Sequence record: NC_048194.1
Source of the DNA: Escherichia phage vB_EcoM_WFH
Reading direction: 5' to 3' (one strand)
DNA: 64,000 nt
Shown here: positions 29,336-53,888 of the stretch, one piece after another
Layout: each line of letters opens with the position of its first letter
Numbering within the stretch: position 1 is the stretch's first letter
Program-made: the position numbers and the translations under genes
The notes under the pieces: generated by a model
Told to the model about the DNA's origin: nothing
Seen by the model: the letters and a program-made list of their open reading frames with translations, nothing else
The model's database searches: none

Positions 29336-30208
29336 TTGAAAAAGAGAATCCTTAAAGTCACCTTATCCATGCCGGATGGCACAAGCCAAGTGCTTGACGA
29401 AGGATTGATGCTTAGATGCCGAATCAAAAAGGCAGCACTTTCCGTTCAGAATAAGGCCACGATTGAAGTCGCAGGATTAACAGGGTACTTGAGAGAGTAC
29501 CTGCTTTCCAACTTCACGGCATTCAACAAACGTCTGCGTGATCAAGGCCAGCTGGCGGCGAACTACGTCAACGTGACTATTGAAGCTGGATACAGAGAAG
29601 GGAATGTAATCAGCAGCAACTTGGTATACAAGGGACAGGTGACGACAGTTGAGATAACAGCGCCGCCGCCGAATATTGTCATCAGAATCACTTGCTACAC
29701 CAACCAAATAAACAGAACTAAGTTCATCACTCAAGCTGCGCCATCCAACCCGACTTTCAAAGAGTTTGTGGAATGGTCTGCAAAACAAATGGACATCGAT
29801 ACTGTTATTTGTGATACGTCGATTAACAATCAGCGACTTGTGAATCCAGGAAGGACGACATATGTTGCTGCTGCGCTGCTGCTTGAGATCCAGAACTATC
29901 AACGCAACTCCATCGCGGCATACATTGATGACGATACGTTAATTGTCAAGGATAAAGACAAAATTCTAAATCCAGACCAGATTACGGTCATTGAGGAATT
30001 TGTCGGAATACCGATGTGGAATGAGTGGGGTGCAGACTTCACTTGTATGTATAACGCAGATTTGAAGCTTGCACAAGGTGTTAAATTCAAATCAGTCTTA
30101 AACCCAAGCTTGAACGACACTACATTTGTCATCATGCAACTTGAATATGATTTAGCAAGTCGTGATGATATATTTACGGTGACGGGCGGCGTTGCACCAT
30201 CGGCATAA
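29336..30208 (+). CDS. Baseplate / tail hub protein
   Basis: 290 aa directly after the tape measure; start (TTG 29336 or ATG 29369) uncertain. Confidence 0.4.
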   Translation: MKKRILKVTLSMPDGTSQVLDEGLMLRCRIKKAALSVQNKATIEVAGLTGYLREYLLSNFTAFNKRLRDQGQLAANYVNVTIEAGYREGNVISSNLVYKGQVTTVEITAPPPNIVIRITCYTNQINRTKFITQAAPSNPTFKEFVEWSAKQMDIDTVICDTSINNQRLVNPGRTTYVAAALLLEIQNYQRNSIAAYIDDDTLIVKDKDKILNPDQITVIEEFVGIPMWNEWGADFTCMYNADLKLAQGVKFKSVLNPSLNDTTFVIMQLEYDLASRDDIFTVTGGVAPSA

Positions 30209-38949: not shown

Positions 38950-39927
38950 TTAAAAATACTCCATATCGGTAATATCACGGAAGCACTTATACAAGGCAGA
39001 GCGCGGCACGTCAACTATGCCAAAGTTAAAGAATTTATATGTCAAATACTTGTTTCGATAATTCTCGCGATTCTCCCAAAGCATTTTTCTCTCTGCCATA
39101 GGCATTGAACCAGCGGAGACGCGGAAGGGAATCATTTCACCTTTCTCATCAACATATTTTGGATTGACAACCACAAATGATCCAAGGTATCCTTTTGCAA
39201 CTAAGCCTTCAGCCTCTTTCGAACGCTTAGTGCGACCCAACTCATCAATGAATGCTTCGTTGTTATTCTCCATCATCTCAACGAAGTCTATGATCAGTCC
39301 TTCTTCATCGGTCCACGGCTTGTCCTTCCACACATCACGTGACTTTGGCGTCGCGCGGCCATGCTTGTATTTGCCCGTCCAAGACTTGCCATACAAGCCT
39401 TCATAGCCAAGCTGGTCTGCTTCGATTTGCATCGCCGCGTACTGTTCCATATTTTCGATGTTTCGATATTCGAGAGCGCGAAGGAATGGGCGTCGACCAT
39501 GGTTGATGAGGTGCTGATTGACTTCAGCAACTCTAGCGCGATAGTTTGCATAACGCTTTTCAAAAGGCAAATCAGGGTCGCTGAAGTCATCAAACACCCA
39601 CCATGTAAAGTTAGTGATTGCATCAGTGTTCATGCATGCAGTATAGGCCTGTTGCATGACGTTCTTGTCATTCGGATTACCGTCAATTAGCTCTCCATCA
39701 AGTCCGTGAATCAATTCACCCAAGAATAGGAACTCTTTTTTGATTTGAATGTTGCGCAGTGCCATGCCGGATGTGCCCATTGGCAAGTTGTCATACGCCA
39801 TCGCGCGTATTCCATCGACCTTGAAGGATAATCCGCAAGGCAGCGGCACATCTTCGCCGCGCTCGATGATTTGTTTACGCTGGCAACCTTTCATTGGTTT
39901 TAATGCTTTGATTTCTCCTGCCATCAC
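38950..39927 (-). CDS. ATP-dependent DNA ligase
   Basis: Motif I KVDGIR, motif III DGEL, motif IV VFDDF, motif V EGLI. Confidence 0.8.
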   Translation of the reverse strand: MMAGEIKALKPMKGCQRKQIIERGEDVPLPCGLSFKVDGIRAMAYDNLPMGTSGMALRNIQIKKEFLFLGELIHGLDGELIDGNPNDKNVMQQAYTACMNTDAITNFTWWVFDDFSDPDLPFEKRYANYRARVAEVNQHLINHGRRPFLRALEYRNIENMEQYAAMQIEADQLGYEGLYGKSWTGKYKHGRATPKSRDVWKDKPWTDEEGLIIDFVEMMENNNEAFIDELGRTKRSKEAEGLVAKGYLGSFVVVNPKYVDEKGEMIPFRVSAGSMPMAERKMLWENRENYRNKYLTYKFFNFGIVDVPRSALYKCFRDITDMEYF

Positions 39928-40517
39928 TCAAACTCCTTATTCATCACTTGTTCCAGCGCATAGGCATAAGCCTGATCAGTCGATTTAATAAACGTTCCGT
40001 TGTACATCACACCTTTACGGTCCTTGATGTCTTCATAGGCGGCTTGAGCGCAATCAGACAGTCGAAGTCCATAATCATGCGCTACGCCGGAAAGATAATC
40101 GACTGCGGCCATGATAGTGACATCAATATCCATGCTTTGATTTTTAGCAATGGCGTCACCAAGCCGTCCGAGAGTCTTCGCCAAGCGAAGGATAAAGGAA
40201 TGAGGGTGAGCGCCTTTGTCAGCGCAACCGCCTCCGTTGATGTCTTCGATTTTTGCACCATTTTGCGCGGCAAGAATAGTTAACACAACAAGGCAATCAC
40301 CGATGTCGTCCTTGATTGCGGCTTGCAAATCACAAATGGCCTGCTCTGTATATCCGATTTCAGGGTCAAAGAACACAAGGTCATGGAGTTGATCCACGTG
40401 GTCGGTCAACTCCCCAAACTCGCTAATAAGCTTCGGGTATTGGTCTTTAAGGCCGCAACCTTTGATGATGTTACGGTCAGAAGCCCATTGGCGAATGTTT
40501 GCATAAATCTGGTTCAT
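39924..40517 (-). CDS. mazG: MazG-like nucleoside triphosphate pyrophosphohydrolase
   Basis: All-alpha NTP-PPase pattern: EFGELTDHV and DDIGDCLVVLTILAAQNGAKIED. Confidence 0.65.
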   Translation of the reverse strand: MNQIYANIRQWASDRNIIKGCGLKDQYPKLISEFGELTDHVDQLHDLVFFDPEIGYTEQAICDLQAAIKDDIGDCLVVLTILAAQNGAKIEDINGGGCADKGAHPHSFILRLAKTLGRLGDAIAKNQSMDIDVTIMAAVDYLSGVAHDYGLRLSDCAQAAYEDIKDRKGVMYNGTFIKSTDQAYAYALEQVMNKEFE

Positions 40518-44425: not shown

Positions 44426-44844
44426 GACAATTCCTCTAAATACTTGATGATGTGATGAATAGTGCCCTTCACGATTATCTCACGTTGAACGTCTGCAATA
44501 TTATAACGCTTTAATTCAATCGAAGGGTGGACTAAATAAAACATCTTCTCAGAATCGACTTTAAGCAAAACAAATGATGGGTATTTCCAATCATTCCACG
44601 AAGAAAGAAAGCTGCACTGACCTTTCTCAAATGCATTTCTGAAAGGTGCAGTGGTGGCCCTTGCAGGCCACGATTCAAAGAACTTCATTTCAAGCCAAAA
44701 GCCGCGCCCTTTCCGGTTGGTGCCGATTACGTCCGGCACACCATCACCCGTCATTGATTCGATTCTTTGAAGCTTCAAGATTGATTCTGAATGCTTCTTC
44801 AAAGGCACGAATATGTATTTCTGTTCACGGTTATTTGTTGCCAT
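44422..44844 (-). CDS. VRR-NUC domain nuclease
   Basis: PD-(D/E)xK signature GVPDVIG ... FWLEMK; usual partner of SNF2 helicases in phages. Confidence 0.7.
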   Translation of the reverse strand: MATNNREQKYIFVPLKKHSESILKLQRIESMTGDGVPDVIGTNRKGRGFWLEMKFFESWPARATTAPFRNAFEKGQCSFLSSWNDWKYPSFVLLKVDSEKMFYLVHPSIELKRYNIADVQREIIVKGTIHHIIKYLEELS

Positions 44845-47728
44845 CTGGATACACCTGTTTGATCACGTCGACGATAAACATGTCAATACCTTCAAGCTTG
44901 CGGCCTTTCATCAGAAAGAATGCGCCGTTCCCGACGTTCTCTGCAATGTACTTACCGTATTTCTGGAACTTCTCTGGGCGAATCCTGAAGCGCATTGGCG
45001 AGTCGGTCGAATCGTCCTTGCACATAAGGTCAATGAACTGAGTCTCAAGCTTGTTTCCATACTGGTCAAACTCTGCGTAGCGGCCATCAGCTTGAAGACC
45101 CTTTTTAAGTTTGCCGTGCTTTGTATAAATGCCGCGCTCAAGACGTTTACGGATGCGTGTCGCTTCGTTCTCGTCAGCCAGCACTTTCTTGGTCAACTTG
45201 CCGATTACTATTGCACGCTCGTCATCGCCGACTTCCTTCATCTGGCGTATTGAAGCACCGGAAGTAACGCCAATCAGATAGGGGTCATTATACGCCCAGC
45301 CAAACTTGGTGTGCATCTCTGTAAGGTCGCCGTATTTGACTTCAGCATTGGCCAATGCATCCTTTTGTTTTTGCGTTAAGGTTCCGGCTTCACGCGCTTC
45401 GATGTACTTCATCGCCTTCACCATTCCGTACCCTTTGGCGTTCATTATGCCGCCGATTAGCTTTCCGTTAGCGATGGTCCAGTTCATTGAAGAGTGATCA
45501 GGGTCGATTGGCACATAATCCACGCCTTCCTTTGCAAGTTCACGTAATATCGCAATCGTCTGGTCTTCGTCCTTAGCAGCGCGTAAGCAAGCAGCGGCAA
45601 ATTCCAACGGGTAGTGTCGTTTAAGCCACAAGGTCCAGTAAGTCACGACCGCGTATGACACGGAGTGTGACTTGTTAAAGCCCCATGACCCGAACGTCGC
45701 CATCGCCTGCCAAAGCTTTCTTGCATCCGCTTCCGGTACGCCGTTATTTATTGCGCCTGCAACGAAGTCTTCGCCAAGCTTGTTAAAGTATTCCTCACCC
45801 TTACGACCTGACATCGCCTTACGCACAGCTGACGTTTTCGCCCAGTCGAATGAACCAATCTCTTTAACCACGGCCATGATTTGCTCTTGGTAAAGAAACA
45901 CGCCATAAGTCTCTTTTAAGTACGGCTCAAGCTGCGGCACGTCGTACTCAATCGGCGCACGTCCTGCCGCGCGTTCAATGTATTTCTGGGCCATACCGGA
46001 CGACAACGGGCCAGGTCGGCCAAGTGCTGTCAGGTTATCGATTTTGTTAAAGTTATCAACGTGCACAAAGTTGGTCACTGAGCGTACAGCGTCGCCTTCA
46101 AACTGGAAGATGCCTGACATCTTGTTTTCGTTAAGGATGTCAAGGACGCTTTGGTCATCAAGCTTGATTCCGTACAGCGTTTCAGCATCTATCACGCCAG
46201 TATCAGAAATGATTCCGAGGGTGCGAAGACCCAATGCATCAAGCTTCAAAAGGTTAAGGTATTCGCTGTCAGGCTTATCAATTTGTGCAATCCCTTCCGC
46301 CGTTACCGTACAGTAATCAGAGATTGGGTCATTACAAACGATGATTCCCGCTGCGTGAACGCCAGTGTGGGAAGGGTGAATCTCAAGGTCACCCATGCAT
46401 CGCGCGGCATCGGGATATTTAGCCACAAACTCTTGGCCCGTGGTCGTTGTTGCAAAGGTGTCCTCCAGGCCGTGGCCATAACGGGCGTCACCGGATGAGT
46501 ATTCAAGCAATGCGTTTTTAATGTTGGCCGTTTCGTGATATCCAATGTTGAATTTCTTACCAACCTGAGCCATTACTGAGTTGGCCTTAAGCGTGTTGAT
46601 GTTGCCAAGTTTTGCAACGTTCATTTCGCCGTATTTTTCTTTAAGGTAATCAAAAACCATATAGCGTTTGGTATCCTCAAAGTCAATATCAATATCAGGA
46701 AGGTCTGCGCGGCTTACGTCAATGAATCGGGCAAACAGTAGCTTATACGGGATTGGGTCAACCTCCGTGATGCCGAGGCAATAACAAACCAGTGAACCAG
46801 CCGATGAGCCGCGAGCGGGTCCGACGAGCATTTTTGTTTTTGCGAATCGTACAAGGTCCGCTACCACCAGAAAGTATGAGTCGAAATCTTTCAGCTGAAT
46901 CTGGTGAATCTCTTCGTTGAATCGGTCCTCATATTCCTGAGTCCATTCTTTGATGTGACCTGCCTTAAGGCGGTACTCCATCCCCTCACGAGCAAGCTTT
47001 ACCATGTCACCAGCAAGGTGGATAATCGGTGCCTTGCGCAGCTTCAGGTCAAGCCCAACGATTCCATTTGCAATATCAACCGCATTGGCCGTTGCTTGAT
47101 TCAACTCGTCTTCGGTCAGGATTCCTTTAAGCTGTTTGCGCAAGTCTTCCGCGTCAACGATGCAGTGCGGCTTAACCGTGTCTCGAACTTCCCATGCATA
47201 AGCAAAGTCAACGTGCTCAGGTGAAGGCATGTGGTTGTATCCGGTTAAAACCAGCGGCCTTCCGTTGCTGCGGTGAGCCAATACCTGGCGCTTGGCCAAA
47301 AGGAACGATGATGGGTTGACGTCTATATAATCATAGTCCTCTGGCCGCAGCAGCTCCACGGCCCCGCCACAGAATTTAACGACGCCATCGAGCGCCCCGA
47401 ACTCTGCACGGGTCAGTCCGCCGCGCTGTGTTGCAAGCGTGGTCGCGTTGTAAAAGGATTTCAGGTCAAGCGCCAATATCCAAGCCTTCGGTTTGAATCC
47501 CTTTTTCGGGTCCGCATCAGGGTCAATGATTGGAATCTCCATACCGAACATAGGCTTGATATCATTCTTCTGACATTCCTTTTCCCATCGAACGTGACCC
47601 CATGTATTGTTATCAACTAATGCCGCGACTTCGCAGCCCAACTCTTTGAGCCGTGCTATAATTTCAGGATGCCGTCCATATACTTCTTTGAACGTGTAAC
47701 CGCTGCGAACTCTCAATTGTGGAAACAT
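44831..47728 (-). CDS. dnaE: DNA polymerase III alpha-type (DnaE-like) replicase
   Basis: N-terminal PHP domain; polymerase signature GPARGSSAGSLVCYCLGITEVDP; 965 aa. Confidence 0.9.
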   Translation of the reverse strand: MFPQLRVRSGYTFKEVYGRHPEIIARLKELGCEVAALVDNNTWGHVRWEKECQKNDIKPMFGMEIPIIDPDADPKKGFKPKAWILALDLKSFYNATTLATQRGGLTRAEFGALDGVVKFCGGAVELLRPEDYDYIDVNPSSFLLAKRQVLAHRSNGRPLVLTGYNHMPSPEHVDFAYAWEVRDTVKPHCIVDAEDLRKQLKGILTEDELNQATANAVDIANGIVGLDLKLRKAPIIHLAGDMVKLAREGMEYRLKAGHIKEWTQEYEDRFNEEIHQIQLKDFDSYFLVVADLVRFAKTKMLVGPARGSSAGSLVCYCLGITEVDPIPYKLLFARFIDVSRADLPDIDIDFEDTKRYMVFDYLKEKYGEMNVAKLGNINTLKANSVMAQVGKKFNIGYHETANIKNALLEYSSGDARYGHGLEDTFATTTTGQEFVAKYPDAARCMGDLEIHPSHTGVHAAGIIVCNDPISDYCTVTAEGIAQIDKPDSEYLNLLKLDALGLRTLGIISDTGVIDAETLYGIKLDDQSVLDILNENKMSGIFQFEGDAVRSVTNFVHVDNFNKIDNLTALGRPGPLSSGMAQKYIERAAGRAPIEYDVPQLEPYLKETYGVFLYQEQIMAVVKEIGSFDWAKTSAVRKAMSGRKGEEYFNKLGEDFVAGAINNGVPEADARKLWQAMATFGSWGFNKSHSVSYAVVTYWTLWLKRHYPLEFAAACLRAAKDEDQTIAILRELAKEGVDYVPIDPDHSSMNWTIANGKLIGGIMNAKGYGMVKAMKYIEAREAGTLTQKQKDALANAEVKYGDLTEMHTKFGWAYNDPYLIGVTSGASIRQMKEVGDDERAIVIGKLTKKVLADENEATRIRKRLERGIYTKHGKLKKGLQADGRYAEFDQYGNKLETQFIDLMCKDDSTDSPMRFRIRPEKFQKYGKYIAENVGNGAFFLMKGRKLEGIDMFIVDVIKQVYPDGNK

Positions 47729-48270
47729 TATTTACTCCAGATGTCATATACGCCAATTTGTTGGCAGACTTTGTGCAGTAATATTACGTCGTCTAATGCA
47801 CGGTGTTTCTGTTCATATTTTCCGAAATATAATTCATACAGCTCTTGAAGCTTAACTCTTCGGCCAAAAATAGGCAAGGTTTGCTCGACTGTACAAATGT
47901 TTATTTCTGGAAAATTAACATCACCAAGTGTAAGACCTTCGCGCTGTAGTGCATAATCAAGAATGTTCTTATCGAACGCATGGTTGTGCGCGATAGTTGC
48001 ATCAGTCTTCTTGAAGATTTCTTTTAGCTGCGGAACGAAATTGATGAATGGTGGATTGCACTCAAGGTCTTCATTTGTTAATCCGGTAATCTTTGTGATG
48101 ATTTCTTCAATCACAATTTCAGGATTAATTATGAACTCGAAAGTTTCAAGAATCTCTTTTCCATCCGTCAACAGGCCTGCAAATTCAATAGGGCGCGGCT
48201 GCATCCCAAGCGGCGCTTTCGGGTGCACGGTTAATCCGGTTGTTTCGAAGTCATAAGGGAGAAATAACAC
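47728..48270 (-). CDS. dnaQ: DnaQ-like 3'-5' proofreading exonuclease (DEDDh)
   Basis: Exo I YDFETTGL, Exo II HNHAFDKNIL, Exo III HRALDDV; stop overlaps the dnaE start (TAATG). Confidence 0.85.
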   Translation of the reverse strand: MLFLPYDFETTGLTVHPKAPLGMQPRPIEFAGLLTDGKEILETFEFIINPEIVIEEIITKITGLTNEDLECNPPFINFVPQLKEIFKKTDATIAHNHAFDKNILDYALQREGLTLGDVNFPEINICTVEQTLPIFGRRVKLQELYELYFGKYEQKHRALDDVILLHKVCQQIGVYDIWSK

Positions 48271-48324
48271 ATTAGCCTCCTACAAAAAGGCCGCCCATTA
48301 GGACGGCCACAGATTCACGATTCG

Positions 48325-48876
48325 TTATACAGTGTACGGAGTACCGTCTTGATTCAACCGCACGATGAACTTAAGGTCGACACCAATGATTTCACGCGTA
48401 TCAAAGATCACATAGTTGTAACGACGCTGACCAGCAATGTTTGGGTTGGTGTGAGAGTCGGTCACAACTTCCTGCGCAACCTGAATGCCTTCTTCTTTAA
48501 AGAACTTGCGCCATTCAGCAAGTTCAGCGGCAGTCACGTGCATACCAAGATGGCTAACCTGATTGTCGTGCGCATCGATGTATTCGATGTTTTCGTGAAT
48601 CCAGTTGCAACCTTTTGTATAGTCAAGAATTTCAAGCTCAAGAGGCTTACCAGCTCCGCCATCGGTGCCGTTGCCAGCCTGATAGTTGAAGCGCAAGTCA
48701 GCTTCGTTGGTGCAATCGCCGCGCTGACCCTTAAAGACATCAGCTTCAAATACGCGACCAGTAGCAACAACGTGATCATGGAACCATTCTGTCAGGCCGA
48801 TTTTAGCCAGGAAATTCTGTGCGCGCTGAGCACCTGGAATTGACAGGGCGATTTGTTCAATTTTAAAATGTGGCAT
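48325..48876 (-). CDS. VOC / glyoxalase-fold protein (tentative)
   Basis: N-terminal FKIEQIALSIPGAQRAQNFLAKIGL and second-half HLGMHV pattern. Confidence 0.35.
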   Translation of the reverse strand: MPHFKIEQIALSIPGAQRAQNFLAKIGLTEWFHDHVVATGRVFEADVFKGQRGDCTNEADLRFNYQAGNGTDGGAGKPLELEILDYTKGCNWIHENIEYIDAHDNQVSHLGMHVTAAELAEWRKFFKEEGIQVAQEVVTDSHTNPNIAGQRRYNYVIFDTREIIGVDLKFIVRLNQDGTPYTV

Positions 48877-48966
48877 TTTGTTTCCTTAATTAAATATTAT
48901 TGATTAATTACTGTGTTGTCTTCGTCCTGTTTTTCAGGAGCAGCGACAACTTCAAATGTTCTTGAT

Positions 48967-49650
48967 TTATTTACCAAATGGAATATCAGTACCAGACATA
49001 AAGCGCCATGCGCCCGTAATTAAGATATGGCGAATGAAGTCAGCAATTACTTGCGGCTCAGTCTCCAATCCATTCATCAGCGCCTTTTTCTGGTATTCAG
49101 CAGCATACTCAGGAGTCCAGCCGCGAGTCGCGCAAACAGCATCTTCAATCTGTTTGGACATGCCAGTACCACGTAGCTTGTTAGGACTAATAGAGAATAC
49201 CGTGATCCCGTATTTAGGCGTAAGCTCGTGAGCCATCTGCTTGCTAATCATGAGCGCAGCAGCCTTGGAAGCATTATAACACAAGCTGGACGTCATAGGA
49301 ATATGCGCAGCGTTGGAAACGATGTTGATCACAAAACCTTTGTTGTCAATAAGACTTTTCAGCGCGGCCTGAGTCGTGTTGACGAAAGAGAAGGCGTTGG
49401 TGTGCATAACGCGATTGAACTCTTCGTAGTTAACATCTTCGAACCAGTTGTTGGAGTTGACGCCAGCGCAGTTGATCAAGCCTTCTACGTCGTATTGAGA
49501 GAGAAGCTCTTTCATCTGTTTCGCGTTACGGATGTCATAGCCGTTCTCCAAATCAATACCGACAACTTCATGACCGTAAGCGCCAAGGGTGTCAAAAATG
49601 GATTTACCAAGACCGGAATTGCAGCCAGTTACAACAATTACTTTTTTCAT
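48967..49650 (-). CDS. Short-chain dehydrogenase/reductase (SDR)
   Basis: Cofactor motif VTGCNSGLGKS, NCAG, catalytic Ser ... YNASK. Confidence 0.8.
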   Translation of the reverse strand: MKKVIVVTGCNSGLGKSIFDTLGAYGHEVVGIDLENGYDIRNAKQMKELLSQYDVEGLINCAGVNSNNWFEDVNYEEFNRVMHTNAFSFVNTTQAALKSLIDNKGFVINIVSNAAHIPMTSSLCYNASKAAALMISKQMAHELTPKYGITVFSISPNKLRGTGMSKQIEDAVCATRGWTPEYAAEYQKKALMNGLETEPQVIADFIRHILITGAWRFMSGTDIPFGK

Positions 49651-49715
49651 TTATTTATCCTTTTTGGACTTCGTTTCGATGAGATAAATATAACTCATCG
49701 AAACGCACAAGTAAA

Positions 49716-50588
49716 CTATTTATTGAAATTAATATTATGGGTGTTGACAAGACGTTCACACATGGCGCTGTAAACACCATCATCGTGTATTGAGTCTTCG
49801 TGCTTCAGGCCGCTGATTGCGAAGCGTGTAAGCTTGACAATCTTAAGCTCGAACAGATGCCACATGTGGTAGTCTTCCGGCGTTTTCAACGTCACGCCAT
49901 TAGGGAAAAGCACCTGCATAACCTGACCTACCATCACAGCGTTATCGCCATAGACAGCGTTGCGCTCACGGAAGGTTGCTGCCATCGCATCAAGAATATC
50001 GGCGGCAGTTGCCGGAGATTGTTCAACTTCCACAGCCTTAGTCTCTTCTTGCCCTGTTGCACTTGGATCAATTGCTAATTGTTGCACCACTTCACCTGCC
50101 TTGCAAAGATTAAATGTAAAAGCGATTTTATTTTGAGCAACGGAATTATAATACAATGCTTCATCTTGCATCCGCGCGAGTACGTCTTGTCGGTCGTCGA
50201 ATACATTGATGATTCGATAATCGCCGTGCCGCAATGCGTGCGACAGCCATGCAGATTTCATAATAGTTGATGGACGTTTGTCGCCATAGTCTCTCATCTT
50301 GATTGTAAATTCATCAAAAGGGAAAACATTGTCCAGACGTTCAAAAGTCACTTGTCTGTATTTTTCTGGCCTTGCAGTCCAATATTCAACCGCCTCACCG
50401 CGAAGAGATGCCGACTCTACTGCTGATGCAATGTGAGGATAGAACTGATCATAACCAATACCGCTGTGATAATCATCATAGTCTGACAACGGACCTGCCA
50501 CCTTGATGCGGTCTAAGCGCCAACGGTCATCAAACAGCGTTCCGTCAAGGTCGAATACGTTTAAGATTTCGCTGTTTTTAATGCTCAT
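49716..50588 (-). CDS. HAD-superfamily phosphatase domain fused to an uncharacterised C-terminal domain
   Basis: Motif I FDLDGTL, motif II WTARP, later Lys and FDDRQD; C-terminal about 140 aa unassigned. Confidence 0.6.
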   Translation of the reverse strand: MSIKNSEILNVFDLDGTLFDDRWRLDRIKVAGPLSDYDDYHSGIGYDQFYPHIASAVESASLRGEAVEYWTARPEKYRQVTFERLDNVFPFDEFTIKMRDYGDKRPSTIMKSAWLSHALRHGDYRIINVFDDRQDVLARMQDEALYYNSVAQNKIAFTFNLCKAGEVVQQLAIDPSATGQEETKAVEVEQSPATAADILDAMAATFRERNAVYGDNAVMVGQVMQVLFPNGVTLKTPEDYHMWHLFELKIVKLTRFAISGLKHEDSIHDDGVYSAMCERLVNTHNINFNK

Positions 50589-51388
50589 CCTTTTGATACT
50601 CCATCTTTAGCAACTGGATTGTTGGTGATTGGCATCGCACTCCAAAACTGGATGCGCAACTCTTCTTGCTGTGCCGTGGTATCCATCCAATCACGATACC
50701 AAGGGCAATGGGCTTTACCGTGACGAGGAAATGCGCACTTACCCATACCAATGCATTGCGGCTGCAGTAATGGATTCGCCCAAGGGTGCACCTTGAGGAC
50801 TTCCGCAACCATTGCGCGGAATACTTCTTGATACTCTCCTTGCGTGCGCGTGCACAAGCGGTTTGACGCCATCTGCTGCAGCGTGCGCAAGTTGAACTTT
50901 GCCATGATATGCGTTTGCATATTAGAAGGCAACACGGCACGTGCATCTTGAATCTCTGCGCCAGCCGCGCGAAGCTCTTGATACAAAGCGTCGATAGTCG
51001 CCATCGCATCATCCCACTTCTCTGCCAGTTCAGCTGCCTTCTCGTCATGGCGAGTCCATCCCTTTGGATCATCCTCTGGGTAAGTGAATTTAGCAGGACG
51101 AATCGCATCAAATGCAGACGACTCCTGAGCGCGGCTGGTGCGTTCTTGATATGCGCCTGTGCGTGTGCGTACCATCTGATGGGTCATGTTCTTTGATACA
51201 GCTGTGATATCAAAGATATAGTCCACAAAGTCAAAAGGCGACTTGATTGTATCAAGCATGTAGCGCCAATGCTCTTGCTTCTCTGATTCCGTCATCTCAG
51301 AGACAGGCTTACCAGTCATGCGCGTGTTCTTTGTTTCCAGCAAAAGGTCAAGTGCATCTTGGGTGTATCGAATTAATTCAACTTTCAT
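50585..51388 (-). CDS. ThyX-family (flavin-dependent thymidylate synthase-like) protein with divergent active-site motif and Cys-rich C-terminal extension
   Basis: ThyX-like N-terminus MKVELIRYT; HQMVRTRTGAYQERTSR where canonical ThyX has RHR-x7-S; C-terminal CIGMGKCAFPRHGKAHC. Confidence 0.6.
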   Translation of the reverse strand: MKVELIRYTQDALDLLLETKNTRMTGKPVSEMTESEKQEHWRYMLDTIKSPFDFVDYIFDITAVSKNMTHQMVRTRTGAYQERTSRAQESSAFDAIRPAKFTYPEDDPKGWTRHDEKAAELAEKWDDAMATIDALYQELRAAGAEIQDARAVLPSNMQTHIMAKFNLRTLQQMASNRLCTRTQGEYQEVFRAMVAEVLKVHPWANPLLQPQCIGMGKCAFPRHGKAHCPWYRDWMDTTAQQEELRIQFWSAMPITNNPVAKDGVSKG

Positions 51389-51401
51389 TTTAATTGTCCT
51401 A

Positions 51402-51848
51402 TTAACGGTAATTCACTAGTTGCTGATCACCAGAGAAGGTGCAATGATAAACGAATTGTGCGTTATAAAGCAACTGAAAACTTTTCTTTGGTTCATTATT
51501 AGAACTCATTGATGTAAAGATTTCTGCACCAGAACGGTTTTCACCAATCAGATTGATAAAGCCGCCAGTTGAACGAGGTTGAACGAAAGTGAAACGTTGC
51601 ATCCACGGAGTCCGGTTGACACCTTTTCCGGTGAATCCTTGAATCTGAATATTCAGACCTTCTTGCTCATTCACACCGATGTAAGTGGTAATCTTCGCAC
51701 CAGTCGTTGCTGCGGTCTTACCGTCCATCGCTTCGCAATCGTAAACAGCGATTGAATCGGAAGTACGGATGGCGGCTTCAGTCGCTTCCATATACATGGT
51801 GCCGAGAATAGCAGTTGCGGCAAGCGCGATTCCAGTGATTCGTTTCAT
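51402..51848 (-). CDS. Secreted protein of unknown function
   Basis: N-terminal signal peptide MKRITGIALAATAILGTMYMEA; 148 aa. Confidence 0.5.
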   Translation of the reverse strand: MKRITGIALAATAILGTMYMEATEAAIRTSDSIAVYDCEAMDGKTAATTGAKITTYIGVNEQEGLNIQIQGFTGKGVNRTPWMQRFTFVQPRSTGGFINLIGENRSGAEIFTSMSSNNEPKKSFQLLYNAQFVYHCTFSGDQQLVNYR

Positions 51849-51913
51849 TTTCGTTTCCTCTATGAGTTCTGCTTCAATGATTAAAGTATACGCCCATTGA
51901 AGCAGAAAGCAAA

Positions 51914-52909
51914 TTATTTATTAGCAATATAAGCAAATTTTTGATAGTTATTTGCTTTGATGAGTTTTTCGACTTCAACAAGGTCATGAGCGACGTCATC
52001 AAGCAAGATATTGCGCCAGGTCGCGAATCGACCGACACTAAACACGTTTAAATCCATAGTCAGCTGCAGGAGTAGGGCGTGTCGCAAGTCTTTCGGAATG
52101 TCGACAATCTTGCCATATTTCTGGTCGACCTTTTCAACTTCTTCAAGAGCAATGTCACTCCATGAAAGGCCAAAGGCCGTCAACACTTCGTCGACTTCTG
52201 CGCGCAGCTTCATGTCACGGTAACGAGTGATGCCGCCTGCGGCTTCAACTGCAGCTTCACTCACGCTGACCAAAGGAATTGTTTCAATGATAAGCGTGTC
52301 ACCAGTAATTGATGCGCGGTAAGTTCTGACGGAGTAGTCAGGGAAGTAAATTGTCTGATACAAATCACACTTACGTTTAATCTTAAAGCGGTAAACGCGA
52401 ATGTTTGCTTTATCAAATGAGAAATCAAGCTTTTGATCAATTCCAGCAAGCTTCATCATGACTGGCAGCGGCGACGTGTTGATGATTGGCGTCTCGCTAT
52501 AGCCGCAAAGAGTATCAACCGGAGTATTAAAGAATATGCGGTCACCCAGTTTGTCGACAAGCTGATCATAAAAGTCATCAGGCGCAATATAACGCGTTGC
52601 AGTCTTAAGCTTCATGATTGAACGGCTGCCAAATTGATTGGTGACCTTCATGGAATACATATTGGCAAGGTTGATTGGGCAATGGTCGTGATAGTAGTTG
52701 CCGCGAAAATACACAGCCTTGTCAACTGTCACGGCCTTAAAAGGGATTCCGGTAATACGGCTTACTTCTTCGCCGCGAAAGCGTAGCAGCGCCTTGTGCT
52801 GTTGCGCTCGTTCCCCTGCTTCGTACACAATAGAGTTCGGGAAGTGACACGCGGTGATAAGTCCTGCCAATCCGCCGCCGATAATCATTACAGGTTGTTT
52901 CATGTTCAT
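51914..52909 (-). CDS. FAD/NAD(P)-binding Rossmann-fold flavoprotein (UDP-galactopyranose-mutase-like or GidA/TrmFO-like, unresolved)
   Basis: N-terminal IIGGGLAGL with acidic residue about 20 aa later; C-terminal GRFATWRN resembles a mutase-type motif. Confidence 0.55.
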   Translation of the reverse strand: MNMKQPVMIIGGGLAGLITACHFPNSIVYEAGERAQQHKALLRFRGEEVSRITGIPFKAVTVDKAVYFRGNYYHDHCPINLANMYSMKVTNQFGSRSIMKLKTATRYIAPDDFYDQLVDKLGDRIFFNTPVDTLCGYSETPIINTSPLPVMMKLAGIDQKLDFSFDKANIRVYRFKIKRKCDLYQTIYFPDYSVRTYRASITGDTLIIETIPLVSVSEAAVEAAGGITRYRDMKLRAEVDEVLTAFGLSWSDIALEEVEKVDQKYGKIVDIPKDLRHALLLQLTMDLNVFSVGRFATWRNILLDDVAHDLVEVEKLIKANNYQKFAYIANK

Positions 52910-53042: not shown

Positions 53043-53888
53043 TTATTCCGCTTGATCACCGTCTTCGGCATCTTCGTTGGGTTCAACATCGACAAACTCG
53101 ATGTGGCCCATCTCTTCCAGCTTGCTCAGGTAGGAGCGAACGGAAGCGCCAAACAGTTGATCTTTAACTTTTTCGCCCAGCTCATCGATAGACTGCGCCA
53201 CGCCAACTTCGCCTTCTTTGATCGCCGCCAGAACGCGTCCACGGGTGGAATGCTCTTGCGGCTGGCTCAGGCCATTGCCAGTGTAGATGAAGTGAGTAGC
53301 TTTTGCACGACGTTGACCGTTTGCCTTTTTAGCGGCCTTACGTTCTGCGATGGCTTTGCGACGTTCTTCAGCTTCTTTCTTACGCTGTTCTTTCTGTTGT
53401 TCTGCAGCTTCTTTCGCCGCAATCTTAGCAGCTTCACGCTCTGCCTTGCGTTTCGCTTTAGCTTCTTCTTTGGCCTTCTCTTTTTCGGCCTTCGCTGCAG
53501 CACGGGCTTGATCACGCTCTGCTTTCTTAGCAGCAGCTTGTTCAGCTTTCAGGCGCTTGGCTTCTTCTTTAGCCTTTGCCTTTTCGATTTCTTTTGCTGC
53601 TTTAGCGGCTTCACGCTCTGCTTTCTTAGCAGCAGCCTTTTCTGCACGCTCTTTAGCTTTCTTAGCTGCTTCTTCAGCACGCTTCTGAGCCTTCTCATCA
53701 GCAGCCTGCTTGCGTTTCAGGGCAGCTTCTTCACGCTTGGCTTGTTTTTCCTGCTCACGCTTCTGGCGTTTTTCTTCGGCTTCTTTCTTTTTAGCCAGAC
53801 GTTTTTCTTCAGCCACGCGACGGCGTTCTGCTGCAGCTGCTTGCTTTTCTTCTTTAGATAATACTTTGATTGCTTCGGCCATATTCAC
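53043..53888 (-). CDS. ER/K-rich single-alpha-helix protein with C-terminal winged-helix-like domain
   Basis: About 170 aa of Lys/Glu/Ala/Arg repeats then a globular C-terminus (RVLAAIKEGEVGVAQSIDELGEKV ... YLSKLEEMGHIEF). Confidence 0.6.
   Translation of the reverse strand: MNMAEAIKVLSKEEKQAAAAERRRVAEEKRLAKKKEAEEKRQKREQEKQAKREEAALKRKQAADEKAQKRAEEAAKKAKERAEKAAAKKAEREAAKAAKEIEKAKAKEEAKRLKAEQAAAKKAERDQARAAAKAEKEKAKEEAKAKRKAEREAAKIAAKEAAEQQKEQRKKEAEERRKAIAERKAAKKANGQRRAKATHFIYTGNGLSQPQEHSTRGRVLAAIKEGEVGVAQSIDELGEKVKDQLFGASVRSYLSKLEEMGHIEFVDVEPNEDAEDGDQAE

Follow-up and report, generated by a model that had tools for sequence, protein, structure and literature searches.

The Escherichia phage vB_EcoM_WFH sequence analysed here (NC_048194.1; a stretch of 64,000 nucleotides, referred to as the window) is the genome of a Wifcevirus myophage, and this report concerns six consecutive minus-strand genes, numbered g1 to g6, between positions 48,325 and 52,909. 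We interpret this cluster, with a probability of roughly 0.55, as a DNA-hypermodification module whose conserved core consists of the flavoprotein g6, the ThyX-family protein g4 and the phosphatase fusion g3. The favoured interpretation is thus a known kind of phage system, thymidine hypermodification, assembled from enzyme families that had not been connected with it. At T before G, the core would produce a thymidine derivative whose C5 methyl carbon bears a group resembling a sugar or polyol, and TG/CA-containing sites would thereby be protected against restriction and against GATC-directed enzymes. An initial annotation of the window had proposed either thymidylate synthesis in unusual enzyme guises or a pathway making a modified pyrimidine or nucleotide-sugar. 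The modified-pyrimidine option is now favoured, with partial support, by orthology to Pbunavirus genes and by a TG-context signature in the DNA. All six open reading frames (ORFs) were recovered where the initial annotation had placed them, and they are listed below, in the order of transcription, with the two replication genes that follow.

51914..52909, minus strand: g6, a 331-aa FAD-type flavoprotein (phrog_4828), first gene of the conserved module
51402..51848, minus strand: g5, a 148-aa ORFan with a signal-peptide-like N-terminus, a genus-specific insertion
50585..51388, minus strand: g4, a 267-aa predicted ThyX-family flavoenzyme with a 4-nt overlap with g3 and a Cys-rich C-terminal extension
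49716..50588, minus strand: g3, a 290-aa fusion of a HAD phosphatase (residues ~1-178) with a four-helix DUF6378-like domain (residues ~192-290)
48967..49650, minus strand: g2, a 227-aa classical short-chain dehydrogenase/reductase (SDR), an accessory gene of the long form of the module
48325..48876, minus strand: g1, a 183-aa probable member of the VOC superfamily (glyoxalase/epimerase/dioxygenase), accessory and travelling with the SDR
47728-48270, minus strand: DnaQ-like exonuclease, immediately downstream of the module
44831-47728, minus strand: Pol III alpha-type polymerase, co-inherited with the module and DnaQ

GATC avoidance is a feature of enterobacterial phages, and the window contains 105 GATC sites in comparison to 247 expected. 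The results showed that 104 of the 105 remaining sites are TGATC and/or GATCA, in comparison to 47% by chance, and that a single site, AGATCC at 29886, lacks a TG/CA flank in comparison to 53% expected (P = 2e-33). For the hexamers with GATC at their centre, the counts in the window were 0 for AGATCT, CGATCG and GGATCC and 47 for TGATCA. The numbers of GATC sites without a TG/CA flank in other genomes, including two controls, were as follows.

Bas99 (Wifcevirus): 0 of 61
Pantoea phage Kyle (long-form module): 0 of 28
IMG/VR locus L020 (long-form module): 1 of 67
Cronobacter phage Ss1 (unrelated podophage with the g6/g4/g3 trio): 0 of 51
Vibrio phage VA-RY-3 (unrelated podophage with the trio): 3 of 61
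Phage lambda (control, unbiased): 56 of 116
Phage N4 (control): a single GATC site overall

The palindromic hexamers gave the same picture. None of the 16 hexamers containing TG/CA was strongly depleted in the window in comparison to 20 of the 48 others (Fisher P = 0.0009), and the corresponding figures were 0 of 16 and 12 of 41 for Ss1 (P = 0.011), while the N4 control avoided TG-containing and other palindromes alike (7 of 16 and 14 of 33). Altogether 17 of the 64 palindromic hexamers, with 5-19 copies expected of each, are wholly missing from the window, namely ACCGGT, AGATCT, AGCGCT, CCCGGG, CCGCGG, CCTAGG, CGATCG, CGGCCG, CGTACG, CTCGAG, GAGCTC, GCTAGC, GGATCC, GGCGCC, GGGCCC, GGTACC and TCCGGA; over-represented hexamers are AAGCTT (56), GTCGAC (29) and TGATCA (47). 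Palindromes containing TT/AA were all kept in the window too, and the protected context may therefore be broader than TG. A similar pattern at CCGG sites, of which 75 of 77 in the window have exactly one T/A flank (RCCGGA or TCCGGY) while CCCGG, CCGGG, RCCGGY and TCCGGA are essentially missing, was considered as protection by a flanking T and rejected, since avoidance of CCNGG, RCCGGY and TCCGGA explains it fully. Little or no GATC flank bias was seen in Pbunavirus F8 and in the metagenomic loci without GATC depletion, as would be the case if their hosts exert no selection against GATC, and a 15-kb Rhizobium phage fragment was uninformative because GATC is not depleted there. The simplest reading of the signature would be that T directly before G has a special status in these genomes and protects the site that overlaps it.

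What the signature-bearing genomes have in common was then narrowed by tblastn (E <= 1e-4). The window phage and the Ss1-like podophages share only g6, g4, DnaQ and Pol III alpha, with one further match to a 135-aa tail-protein fragment in Ss1. The module, possibly with its dedicated replicase, is thus the best candidate, as judged from these genome comparisons, for the source of a TG-context modification.

A modification of precisely this context has been reported for Pbunavirus. DNA of phages F8 and 14-1 resists all tested enzymes with TG-containing sites, and about 25% of thymines, in TG context, are replaced by nucleosides of 362 and 390 Da which were described as tetritol-like and cyclic pentose-like, while canonical T persists (Yee et al. 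2025 preprint, PMC12191111). The authors found none of the known hypermodified-base genes in F8 and 14-1 and assigned no genes (PMC12191111), and failures of native nanopore sequencing specific to Pbunavirus have been described since (2026 preprint). We found that Pbunavirus carries orthologues of g6 (~40% identity), g4 (~49% identity) and g3, arranged as in the window and likewise adjoining DnaQ and Pol III alpha. The initial annotation did not recognise the gene combination as a described phage module; this still stands in that no paper was found linking this gene set, or ThyX/UDP-galactopyranose mutase (UGM)-like genes, to Pbunavirus modification, while the arrangement itself does occur in the well-studied Pbunavirus phages. 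The protein assignments in the window did not turn out to be all routine, and in the well-studied phages that have the same arrangement the DNA is non-canonical. For Wifcevirus, the restriction-modification (RM) systems tested have been reported to leave the phages unaffected, an insensitivity for which no cause is known, and no restriction-digest or base-composition data were found in the literature.

As side observations, F8 and 14-1 bear different modifications, and in a region otherwise more than 90% identical between them g6 is 97% and ThyX 94% identical, while the HAD protein ORF057 is 80% identical with linker indels. Other divergent genes are ORF070 (56%) and the small ORFs 058, 060 and 061 (78-82%); the ER/K-rich N-terminal half of ORF066 gives no BLAST alignment, while its C-terminal half is 92% identical. 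ORF070 of F8 was considered as a determinant of sugar specificity and rejected for the window, where it has no homologue; by eye it is Zn-ribbon/coiled-coil-like.

To describe how tightly the genes are linked, 80 diverse IMG/VR loci were retrieved with a g6 profile, 62 of which had enough downstream sequence for a ThyX test. In all 62 a ThyX gene lies within 3 kb of g6 on the same strand, often with a 4-nt overlap, and linkage of g6 with this ThyX subfamily is obligate. Of the 80 loci, 69 have HAD-N, 67 the DUF6378-like C-domain, 47 the SDR gene and 44 the VOC gene. The gene order is constant (g6, ThyX, HAD, SDR, VOC, DnaQ, Pol III alpha), and it is conserved through DnaQ and Pol III alpha in 56 of the 80 loci. 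Among these 56 DnaQ-bounded modules, SDR and VOC occur together in 37 (long form; Wifcevirus, Pantoea phage Kyle, Luteibacter phage Pluto, Xanthomonas phage XcP1 and locus L020) and are both missing in 17 (short form; Pbunavirus and Burkholderia phage WTB). Homologues at 35-70% identity are found in hundreds of phage genomes, which marks the predicted genes as real, and the trio of flavoprotein, ThyX and HAD occurs in three unrelated lineages, represented by Pbunavirus F8, the 42-kb podophage Cronobacter Ss1 and a 206-kb Rhizobium phage. In Ss1 the g6 and ThyX genes overlap and are followed by a protein with DUF3310 and a weak HAD domain that is recognisable by profile only. The six-gene cluster of the initial annotation is better described as a module of five genes, conserved in hundreds of viral contigs, with the signal-peptide gene g5 as a Wifcevirus-only ORFan insertion.

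The protein encoded by g4 had been called a divergent ThyX, and the searches agreed. It matches Pfam Thy1 (PF02511) strongly (2.9e-30, 105.9 bits in comparison to a cutoff of 24.8, profile positions 2-191 of 191) and misses the cutoff of the NCBIfam equivalog TIGR02170 (81.8 bits in comparison to 87.9). In the phmmer alignment to Thermotoga maritima ThyX (3n0b), the dUMP-contact residues Q75, R78, R80, R90, R147 and R174 are kept, and they are invariant in the homologue alignment. The ThyX signature motif is RHRxxSxxxxS, and at this position g4 has RTRTGAYQERT, while the three controls (Clostridium, Bacillus phage and STSV1) have RHR...S; literature searches brought up no text on the RHR motif. 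In all 78 g6-linked ThyX sequences, T. maritima His53 is replaced by Ile (His in the Clostridium and Bacillus controls and Tyr in STSV1), His59 by Phe (His in the three controls), His79 of the RHR motif by Thr, Ser or Asn (Thr in g4 and His in the controls) and Ser88 by Thr (Ser in the controls). His53 stacks on the folate in structures of the flavin-dependent thymidylate synthase with folate, and the H53A variant structure 4GTF is among the PDB matches of g4. As judged from the alignment, g4 is a member of a distinct ThyX subfamily, and the histidine changes suggest that the folate/NADPH side of its active site has been rebuilt.

Two further features of the g4 family were observed. The C-terminal extension of about 70 residues (50585-50800) has conserved cysteines (RLC...QxxC-x5-CAFPR...HC) and may form a Zn or Fe-S site; the motif CxnCAFP is present in 35 of the 78 g6-linked ThyX and missing from the Ss1-like and Rhizobium-phage versions. 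In the phage collection, ThyX proteins at least 38% identical to g4 occur in per-genus counts that match those of g6 (292 Pseudomonas, 25 Escherichia and 9 Serratia), and the listed ThyX proteins from hosts without g6 matches are all at most 33% identical to g4. A separate observation is that the 'ThyX-like' proteins of Gordonia phage Ranch and Mycobacterium phage Gumball (351-366 aa) have RQR for RHR, lack both other histidines and are not among the g6 matches; they may, by their sequences, represent a second non-canonical ThyX lineage.

For g6, the flavoprotein assignment held in that the predicted model (pLDDT 87, confident) has the single-FAD-domain oxidoreductase fold of the UGM, protoporphyrinogen oxidase (PPO) and amine oxidase class, while no match was found in Pfam, NCBIfam (E <= 1), PDB phmmer or profile searches. 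The family has about 1950 homologues, nearly all on phage-sized contigs, and is represented in 360 deposited phage records, among which the per-genus counts given above for ThyX are found. The annotators of phage Mansfield named the g6 homologue UDP-galactopyranose mutase. A GRxAxY-like motif at the C-terminus of g6 was compared with UGM by eye only.

The call of a HAD phosphatase fused to an unknown domain was borne out for g3, which matches Pfam HAD_PNKP above cutoff (5.4e-8, 33.5 bits in comparison to 27.6) and has a separate C-terminal four-helix domain. PDB profile matches were obtained to Pnkp1 and to the phosphatase domain of T4 Pnk, Foldseek matched the model (AF2, pLDDT 88.8) to the T4 Pnkp 3'-phosphatase at 2e-5, and the catalytic residues D13, D15, T71, K111, D131 and D132 of HAD motifs I-IV are invariant across 39 homologues, so that by sequence the active site is predicted to be intact. 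Neither a kinase family match nor a P-loop kinase domain was found in g3, the C-terminal half being the four-helix DUF6378-like domain, and the name 'polynucleotide kinase/phosphorylase' in GenBank and PHROGs is therefore wrong. The C-domain itself gave nothing in Pfam, NCBIfam, PDB phmmer or profile searches, and in the fold search with the two-domain model HAD matches dominated and the C-domain was not identified; DUF6378 was reached transitively, through the 21 of 45 homologues that match it, in a family of 1613 representatives. A MazG/DUF1599-like NTP pyrophosphatase is a speculative guess at its identity. In 22 of 65 loci, the HAD part and the C-domain are encoded by ORFs of their own. 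The C-domain (49719-50015; ~100 aa) was also seen to be more conserved than the HAD domain to which it is fused, many of its relatives are stand-alone proteins of 100-180 aa, and the Ss1 counterpart of g3 bears DUF3310 in place of the DUF6378-like domain.

The two accessory enzymes were assigned with different ease. For g2, the SDR call was confirmed by a match to adh_short (1e-31, 110 bits) with the cofactor and catalytic motifs in place (TGCNSGLG at residue 8, NCAG at 60, SNAA at 112 and YNASK at 125); it also matches phrog_3142 at 5.7e-47, and the nearest PDB sequence is FabG at 6e-13. For g1, the VOC call held weakly for the protein alone (Glyoxalase_4 E=0.09, 13.5 bits in comparison to a cutoff of 27, and no match in NCBIfam or the PDB profile search) and more strongly through its homologues, 18 of 30 of which match Glyoxalase_4 (best 9e-6). 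Residues Q8, E82, H109 and D167 are invariant and are putative metal ligands, and the Mansfield annotators gave the g1 homologue the InterPro entry IPR029068. The hydropathy profile of the remaining gene product, g5, combines a basic n-region with a hydrophobic h-region, as is usual for signal peptides or anchors, in agreement with the initial annotation. The g5 protein had no family matches in Pfam, PHROGs or NCBIfam, forms a single 90%-identity cluster among 5.8 billion proteins, limited to Wifcevirus, and occurs in three of the 80 related loci, all three Wifcevirus; an ORF of equal length in Pantoea phage Kyle was considered as a homologue and rejected as unrelated.

The flanks named in the initial annotation, DnaQ and the ER/K-rich protein, were both confirmed. 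The elements that bound and punctuate the cluster are listed here.

53043-53888: ER/K-rich protein, 76 K+R and 59 D+E among 281 residues
52995..53015, minus strand: intrinsic terminator of the upstream ER/K-rich gene (8-bp GC-rich stem, then T7), which marks where the six-gene unit is bounded on its 5' side
51849..51913, minus strand: intergenic 14-bp perfect hairpin in the g6-g5 gap, RNA fold -19.1 kcal/mol, z = -3.4
49651..49715, minus strand: intergenic hairpin in the g3-g2 gap, RNA fold -22.1 kcal/mol, z = -5.8, with 0 of 200 shuffles equally stable
48877..48966, minus strand: imperfect hairpin in the g2-g1 gap, RNA fold -17.6 kcal/mol, z = -3.6
48289..48308, minus strand: intrinsic terminator, 8-bp stem (7 GC pairs) followed by T5, fold -20.2 kcal/mol, closing the six-gene unit before DnaQ

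Because strong terminators stand on both sides, and both are also annotated at matching places in phage Mansfield, the six genes look like a single transcription unit between the ER/K-rich gene and DnaQ. The three hairpins inside the cluster have no T-run, two of them have A/T-rich loops containing TATAC/TATAT, and roles in processing, stability or regulation are conceivable. Over the 4.6-kb region, the sequence is 100% identical to that of Shigella phage CWP003 (Wifcevirus) and 93-98% identical to 26 further Escherichia/Shigella phage records, including FEC19, ECML-117, WFC, Mansfield and BASEL Bas98-101. The ER/K-rich protein has a conserved, non-repetitive C-terminal domain of ~90 residues, and its gene lies directly upstream of g6, with the terminator in between, in all PB1-like/Wifcevirus-like loci (32 of 80) and not in more distant lineages. 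Elsewhere in the window, a 197-aa ORF at 39924-40517 on the minus strand is annotated as a MazG-like pyrophosphatase in relatives, occurs also in Pbunavirus F8 (gp049) and has no Pfam match at E <= 0.01; it could be a further nucleotide-pool enzyme of the same pathway.

The masses reported for Pbunavirus suggest what chemistry such a module might perform. Both 362 (tetritol) and 390 (pentose) equal [thymidine - 2H + ROH], and the same masses equal [dU + aldose - H2O], with a reduced pentose (+2H) for 362 and a cyclised hexose for 390. Either formula implies chemistry through a 5-methylene or 5-alkylidene uracil, which is the intermediate of ThyX catalysis, and since this electrophile is common to the mass formulas and to ThyX, the two flavoenzymes are proposed to make it and a sugar to capture it. 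In the first step, a flavoenzyme of the g4/g6 pair would create the electrophilic 5-methylene-uracil, either by g4 forming it during ThyX-type chemistry or by g6 taking a hydride from the methyl group of thymine, in the manner of PPO, monoamine oxidase (MAO) and vanillyl-alcohol-oxidase (VAO)-type enzymes at activated CH groups. In the second step, the hydroxyl of a sugar or sugar-phosphate, or a sugar carbon, would capture it in place of hydride; the Pnkp-type HAD domain would then remove a phosphate from the appended group or nucleotide, and in the long form SDR and VOC would oxidise, reduce or epimerise the side chain. The conserved mononucleotide-binding arginines of g4 argue for a nucleotide as the substrate, while the near-absolute context dependence in the genome sequences argues for a step at the DNA level. 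A more specific version fits the published masses to one shared 5-alkylidene intermediate, with hydride reduction of the pentose adduct for 362 and ring closure of the hexose adduct for 390. This version, in which an aldose or its phosphate would replace methylenetetrahydrofolate (CH2-THF) in a flavin-N5 iminium reaction of g4 and g6, so that C1 of the sugar becomes the 'methyl' carbon of a C-C-linked sugar which HAD would dephosphorylate and SDR/VOC would remodel, is speculative and we consider it improbable in this exact form.

Several observations weigh against the hypermodification interpretation. The SDR and VOC genes are not in Pbunavirus and are thus not needed for the basic modification. 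All dUMP-binding arginines are kept in g4, so that plain dTMP synthesis is possible, and ThyX genes are common in phages. A TG specificity implies a sequence-reading step, and no recognisable DNA-binding domain was found in the module proteins. For g6, UGM is the best structural match only marginally ahead of PPO or MAO, and its identity as a true UGM was rejected, since hhalign of a 39-sequence g6 profile with E. coli Glf aligns only residues 4-23, the GxGxxG dinucleotide-binding motif, at a probability of 3.5%; from the model, our call is that g6 is UGM-like in fold and not a UGM. Because the module is inherited together with Pol III alpha and DnaQ, the genome comparison cannot assign the signature to the enzymes alone, many other uncharacterised genes are common to Pbunavirus and Wifcevirus, and a different process that depends on TG might in principle underlie the signature. 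Finally, Bas98-101 resist EcoRI and EcoRV in vivo, of which the window has 15 and 7 sites, respectively, and F8 is cut by EcoRI; neither recognition site contains TG, and a TG modification alone therefore does not explain the BASEL phenotype.

The most probable alternative is an unusual housekeeping module for thymidylate and nucleotide pools, which we nevertheless consider rather unlikely. Here g4 would make dTMP with g6 as an accessory flavin reductase or oxidase compensating for the lost histidines (a two-component ThyX), g3 would be a nucleotidase or 3'-phosphatase for pool balance or end repair, SDR and VOC would be unrelated auxiliary genes, and any TG modification would be encoded elsewhere, for example by uncharacterised genes or a special replicase. 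The complete set of dUMP-binding residues and the strong Thy1 match are consistent with it, as are the position within the replication genes, next to DnaQ and Pol III alpha, and the similarity of the g3 HAD domain to the T4 Pnkp phosphatase and AphA-type nucleotidases. A two-component enzyme would account for the obligate, translationally overlapping pair of g6 and ThyX no less well than a pathway would, and Pol III alpha and DnaQ are co-inherited with the signature to an equal degree. The initial annotation had named thymidylate synthesis in unusual guises as its other option, and while the retained dUMP site keeps this alive, the loss of three histidines in all 78 members and the equivalog score below cutoff weaken it. 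The g6 fold is, moreover, of the single-dinucleotide-domain UGM/PPO/MAO class, unlike an NAD(P)H:flavin reductase, and the fixed-order SDR/VOC pair of 37 of the 56 modules is left unexplained. As for a modification encoded elsewhere, a Pfam scan of ten larger non-structural ORFs found no glycosyltransferase, kinase, aGPT-Pplase, TET/JBP or other small-molecule or DNA-modifying enzyme, so that these ORFs offer no other enzyme-like candidate.

A second alternative is a pre-replicative route, in which g4 and g6 would build a C5-substituted dUMP from dUMP and a sugar (phosphate), g3 would trim it, host kinases would make the triphosphate and Pol III alpha/DnaQ would incorporate it, the TG bias arising from incorporation or proofreading and not from a DNA-modifying enzyme. 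The mononucleotide-binding arginines of g4 point in this direction, no recognisable sequence-reading DNA enzyme is found in the module, and a dedicated Pol III alpha/DnaQ pair always adjoins the module and is inherited along with it, even in unrelated podophages. This contiguity may, however, simply reflect transfer of the whole block. The blocking of all tested TG sites in F8 and the 104 of 105 GATC sites in the window also indicate a near-complete, context-defined modification, which would be unprecedented for a choice between dTTP and an analogue at the polymerase level, and we regard the route as unlikely. An auxiliary glycan module, in which a UGM-like mutase, SDR, VOC epimerase, sugar-phosphate phosphatase and secreted protein would alter host nucleotide-sugars or O-antigen/lipopolysaccharide, e.g., for superinfection exclusion, with ThyX merely adjacent, could draw on the best structural match of g6 and its name in Mansfield, on the O-antigen as receptor of these phages with glf in the K-12 O16 antigen cluster and on the predicted signal peptide of g5, but is very improbable, since g6 has no sequence-level membership of the GLF family and its obligate partners, in hosts from Pseudomonas to Rhizobium and Vibrio, are ThyX and the replicase and not glycosyltransferases. 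The genes also form part of the replication block with DnaQ and the polymerase, g5 is an ORFan confined to one genus, and the TG signature is left unexplained.

If the hypermodification module is responsible for the TG-context modification, it would represent a route to hypermodified thymidine without a ThyA-type hydroxymethylase, DNA kinase, aGPT-Pplase or glycosyltransferase, and a large ThyX subfamily and an unannotated flavoprotein family of ~2000 members would each be assigned a new function. The context of surviving GATC sites would then provide a simple sequence-only test predicting TG-modified genomes. The C-C-linked sugar version, if true, would add nucleic-acid modification enzymes of a new class and a branch of ThyX that does not depend on folate. 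Two studies of 2025 left the Pbunavirus TG-thymidine modification without genes and the RM insensitivity of Wifcevirus without a cause, and the module makes both open questions directly testable. The subject is of relevance to phage therapy (host range, and END-type nucleases targeting hypermodified DNA), to the sequencing of such phages and to enzymology.

In comparison to known systems, the closest is that of Pbunavirus F8 and 14-1, which have the g6, g4 and g3 orthologues in order and whose modified TG motif equals the TG/CA-specific signature of the window, as read here from sequence alone; the key differences are that Pbunavirus has no SDR, VOC or g5 and that F8 is cut by EcoRI while Wifcevirus is EcoRI-resistant in vivo. 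At the level of single proteins, g4 shares the fold family and dUMP-binding residues with canonical ThyX (T. maritima TM0449; PF02511, TIGR02170), from which it differs by RTR for RHR, Ile for H53, Phe for H59, Thr for S88, the Cys-rich extension and its constant pairing with g6. By its predicted model, g6 falls into the wider UGM/PPO/amine oxidase fold class and, as noted, has no membership of the UGM (Glf) family by sequence, while g3 shares the HAD domain and catalytic motifs with the T4 Pnkp 3'-phosphatase and has a DUF6378-like domain instead of the P-loop kinase.

Thymidylate-synthase homologues have been repurposed for base hypermodification before, including a flavin-using one (PMC8989533; PMC13326640). 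Phages M6, ViI, PhiW-14, SP10 and PaMx11 (Lee et al. 2018; 2021, PMC8989533) also have bulky groups attached to the C5-methyl carbon of part of T and restriction resistance, as is proposed here, and their pathways likewise start with an enzyme of the thymidylate-synthase superfamily, followed by tailoring enzymes which include flavoproteins (PMC8989533). They differ in that a ThyA-type dUMP hydroxymethylase is used, all T is replaced by 5-hmdU, and a 5-hmdU DNA kinase acts together with aGPT-Pplase transferases that have amino-acid donors; in the window no 5-HMUDK, aGPT-Pplase, dUMP hydroxymethylase or TET/JBP was found among the six genes and the ten other non-structural ORFs scanned. The 5-hydroxy-dCMP synthase of RB69/DLP3, which accompanies arabinosylation genes (Lee et al. 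2026, PMC13326640), is a flavin-using thymidylate-synthase homologue with switched chemistry, encoded beside sugar-handling enzymes that serve a glycosyl-type hypermodification of DNA. Whereas that system uses a ThyA fold on dCMP, recognisable glycosyltransferases and NDP-sugar enzymes, and replaces C completely (PMC13326640), the module described here has a ThyX fold, no glycosyltransferase that we found and, as proposed, T in TG context as its target.

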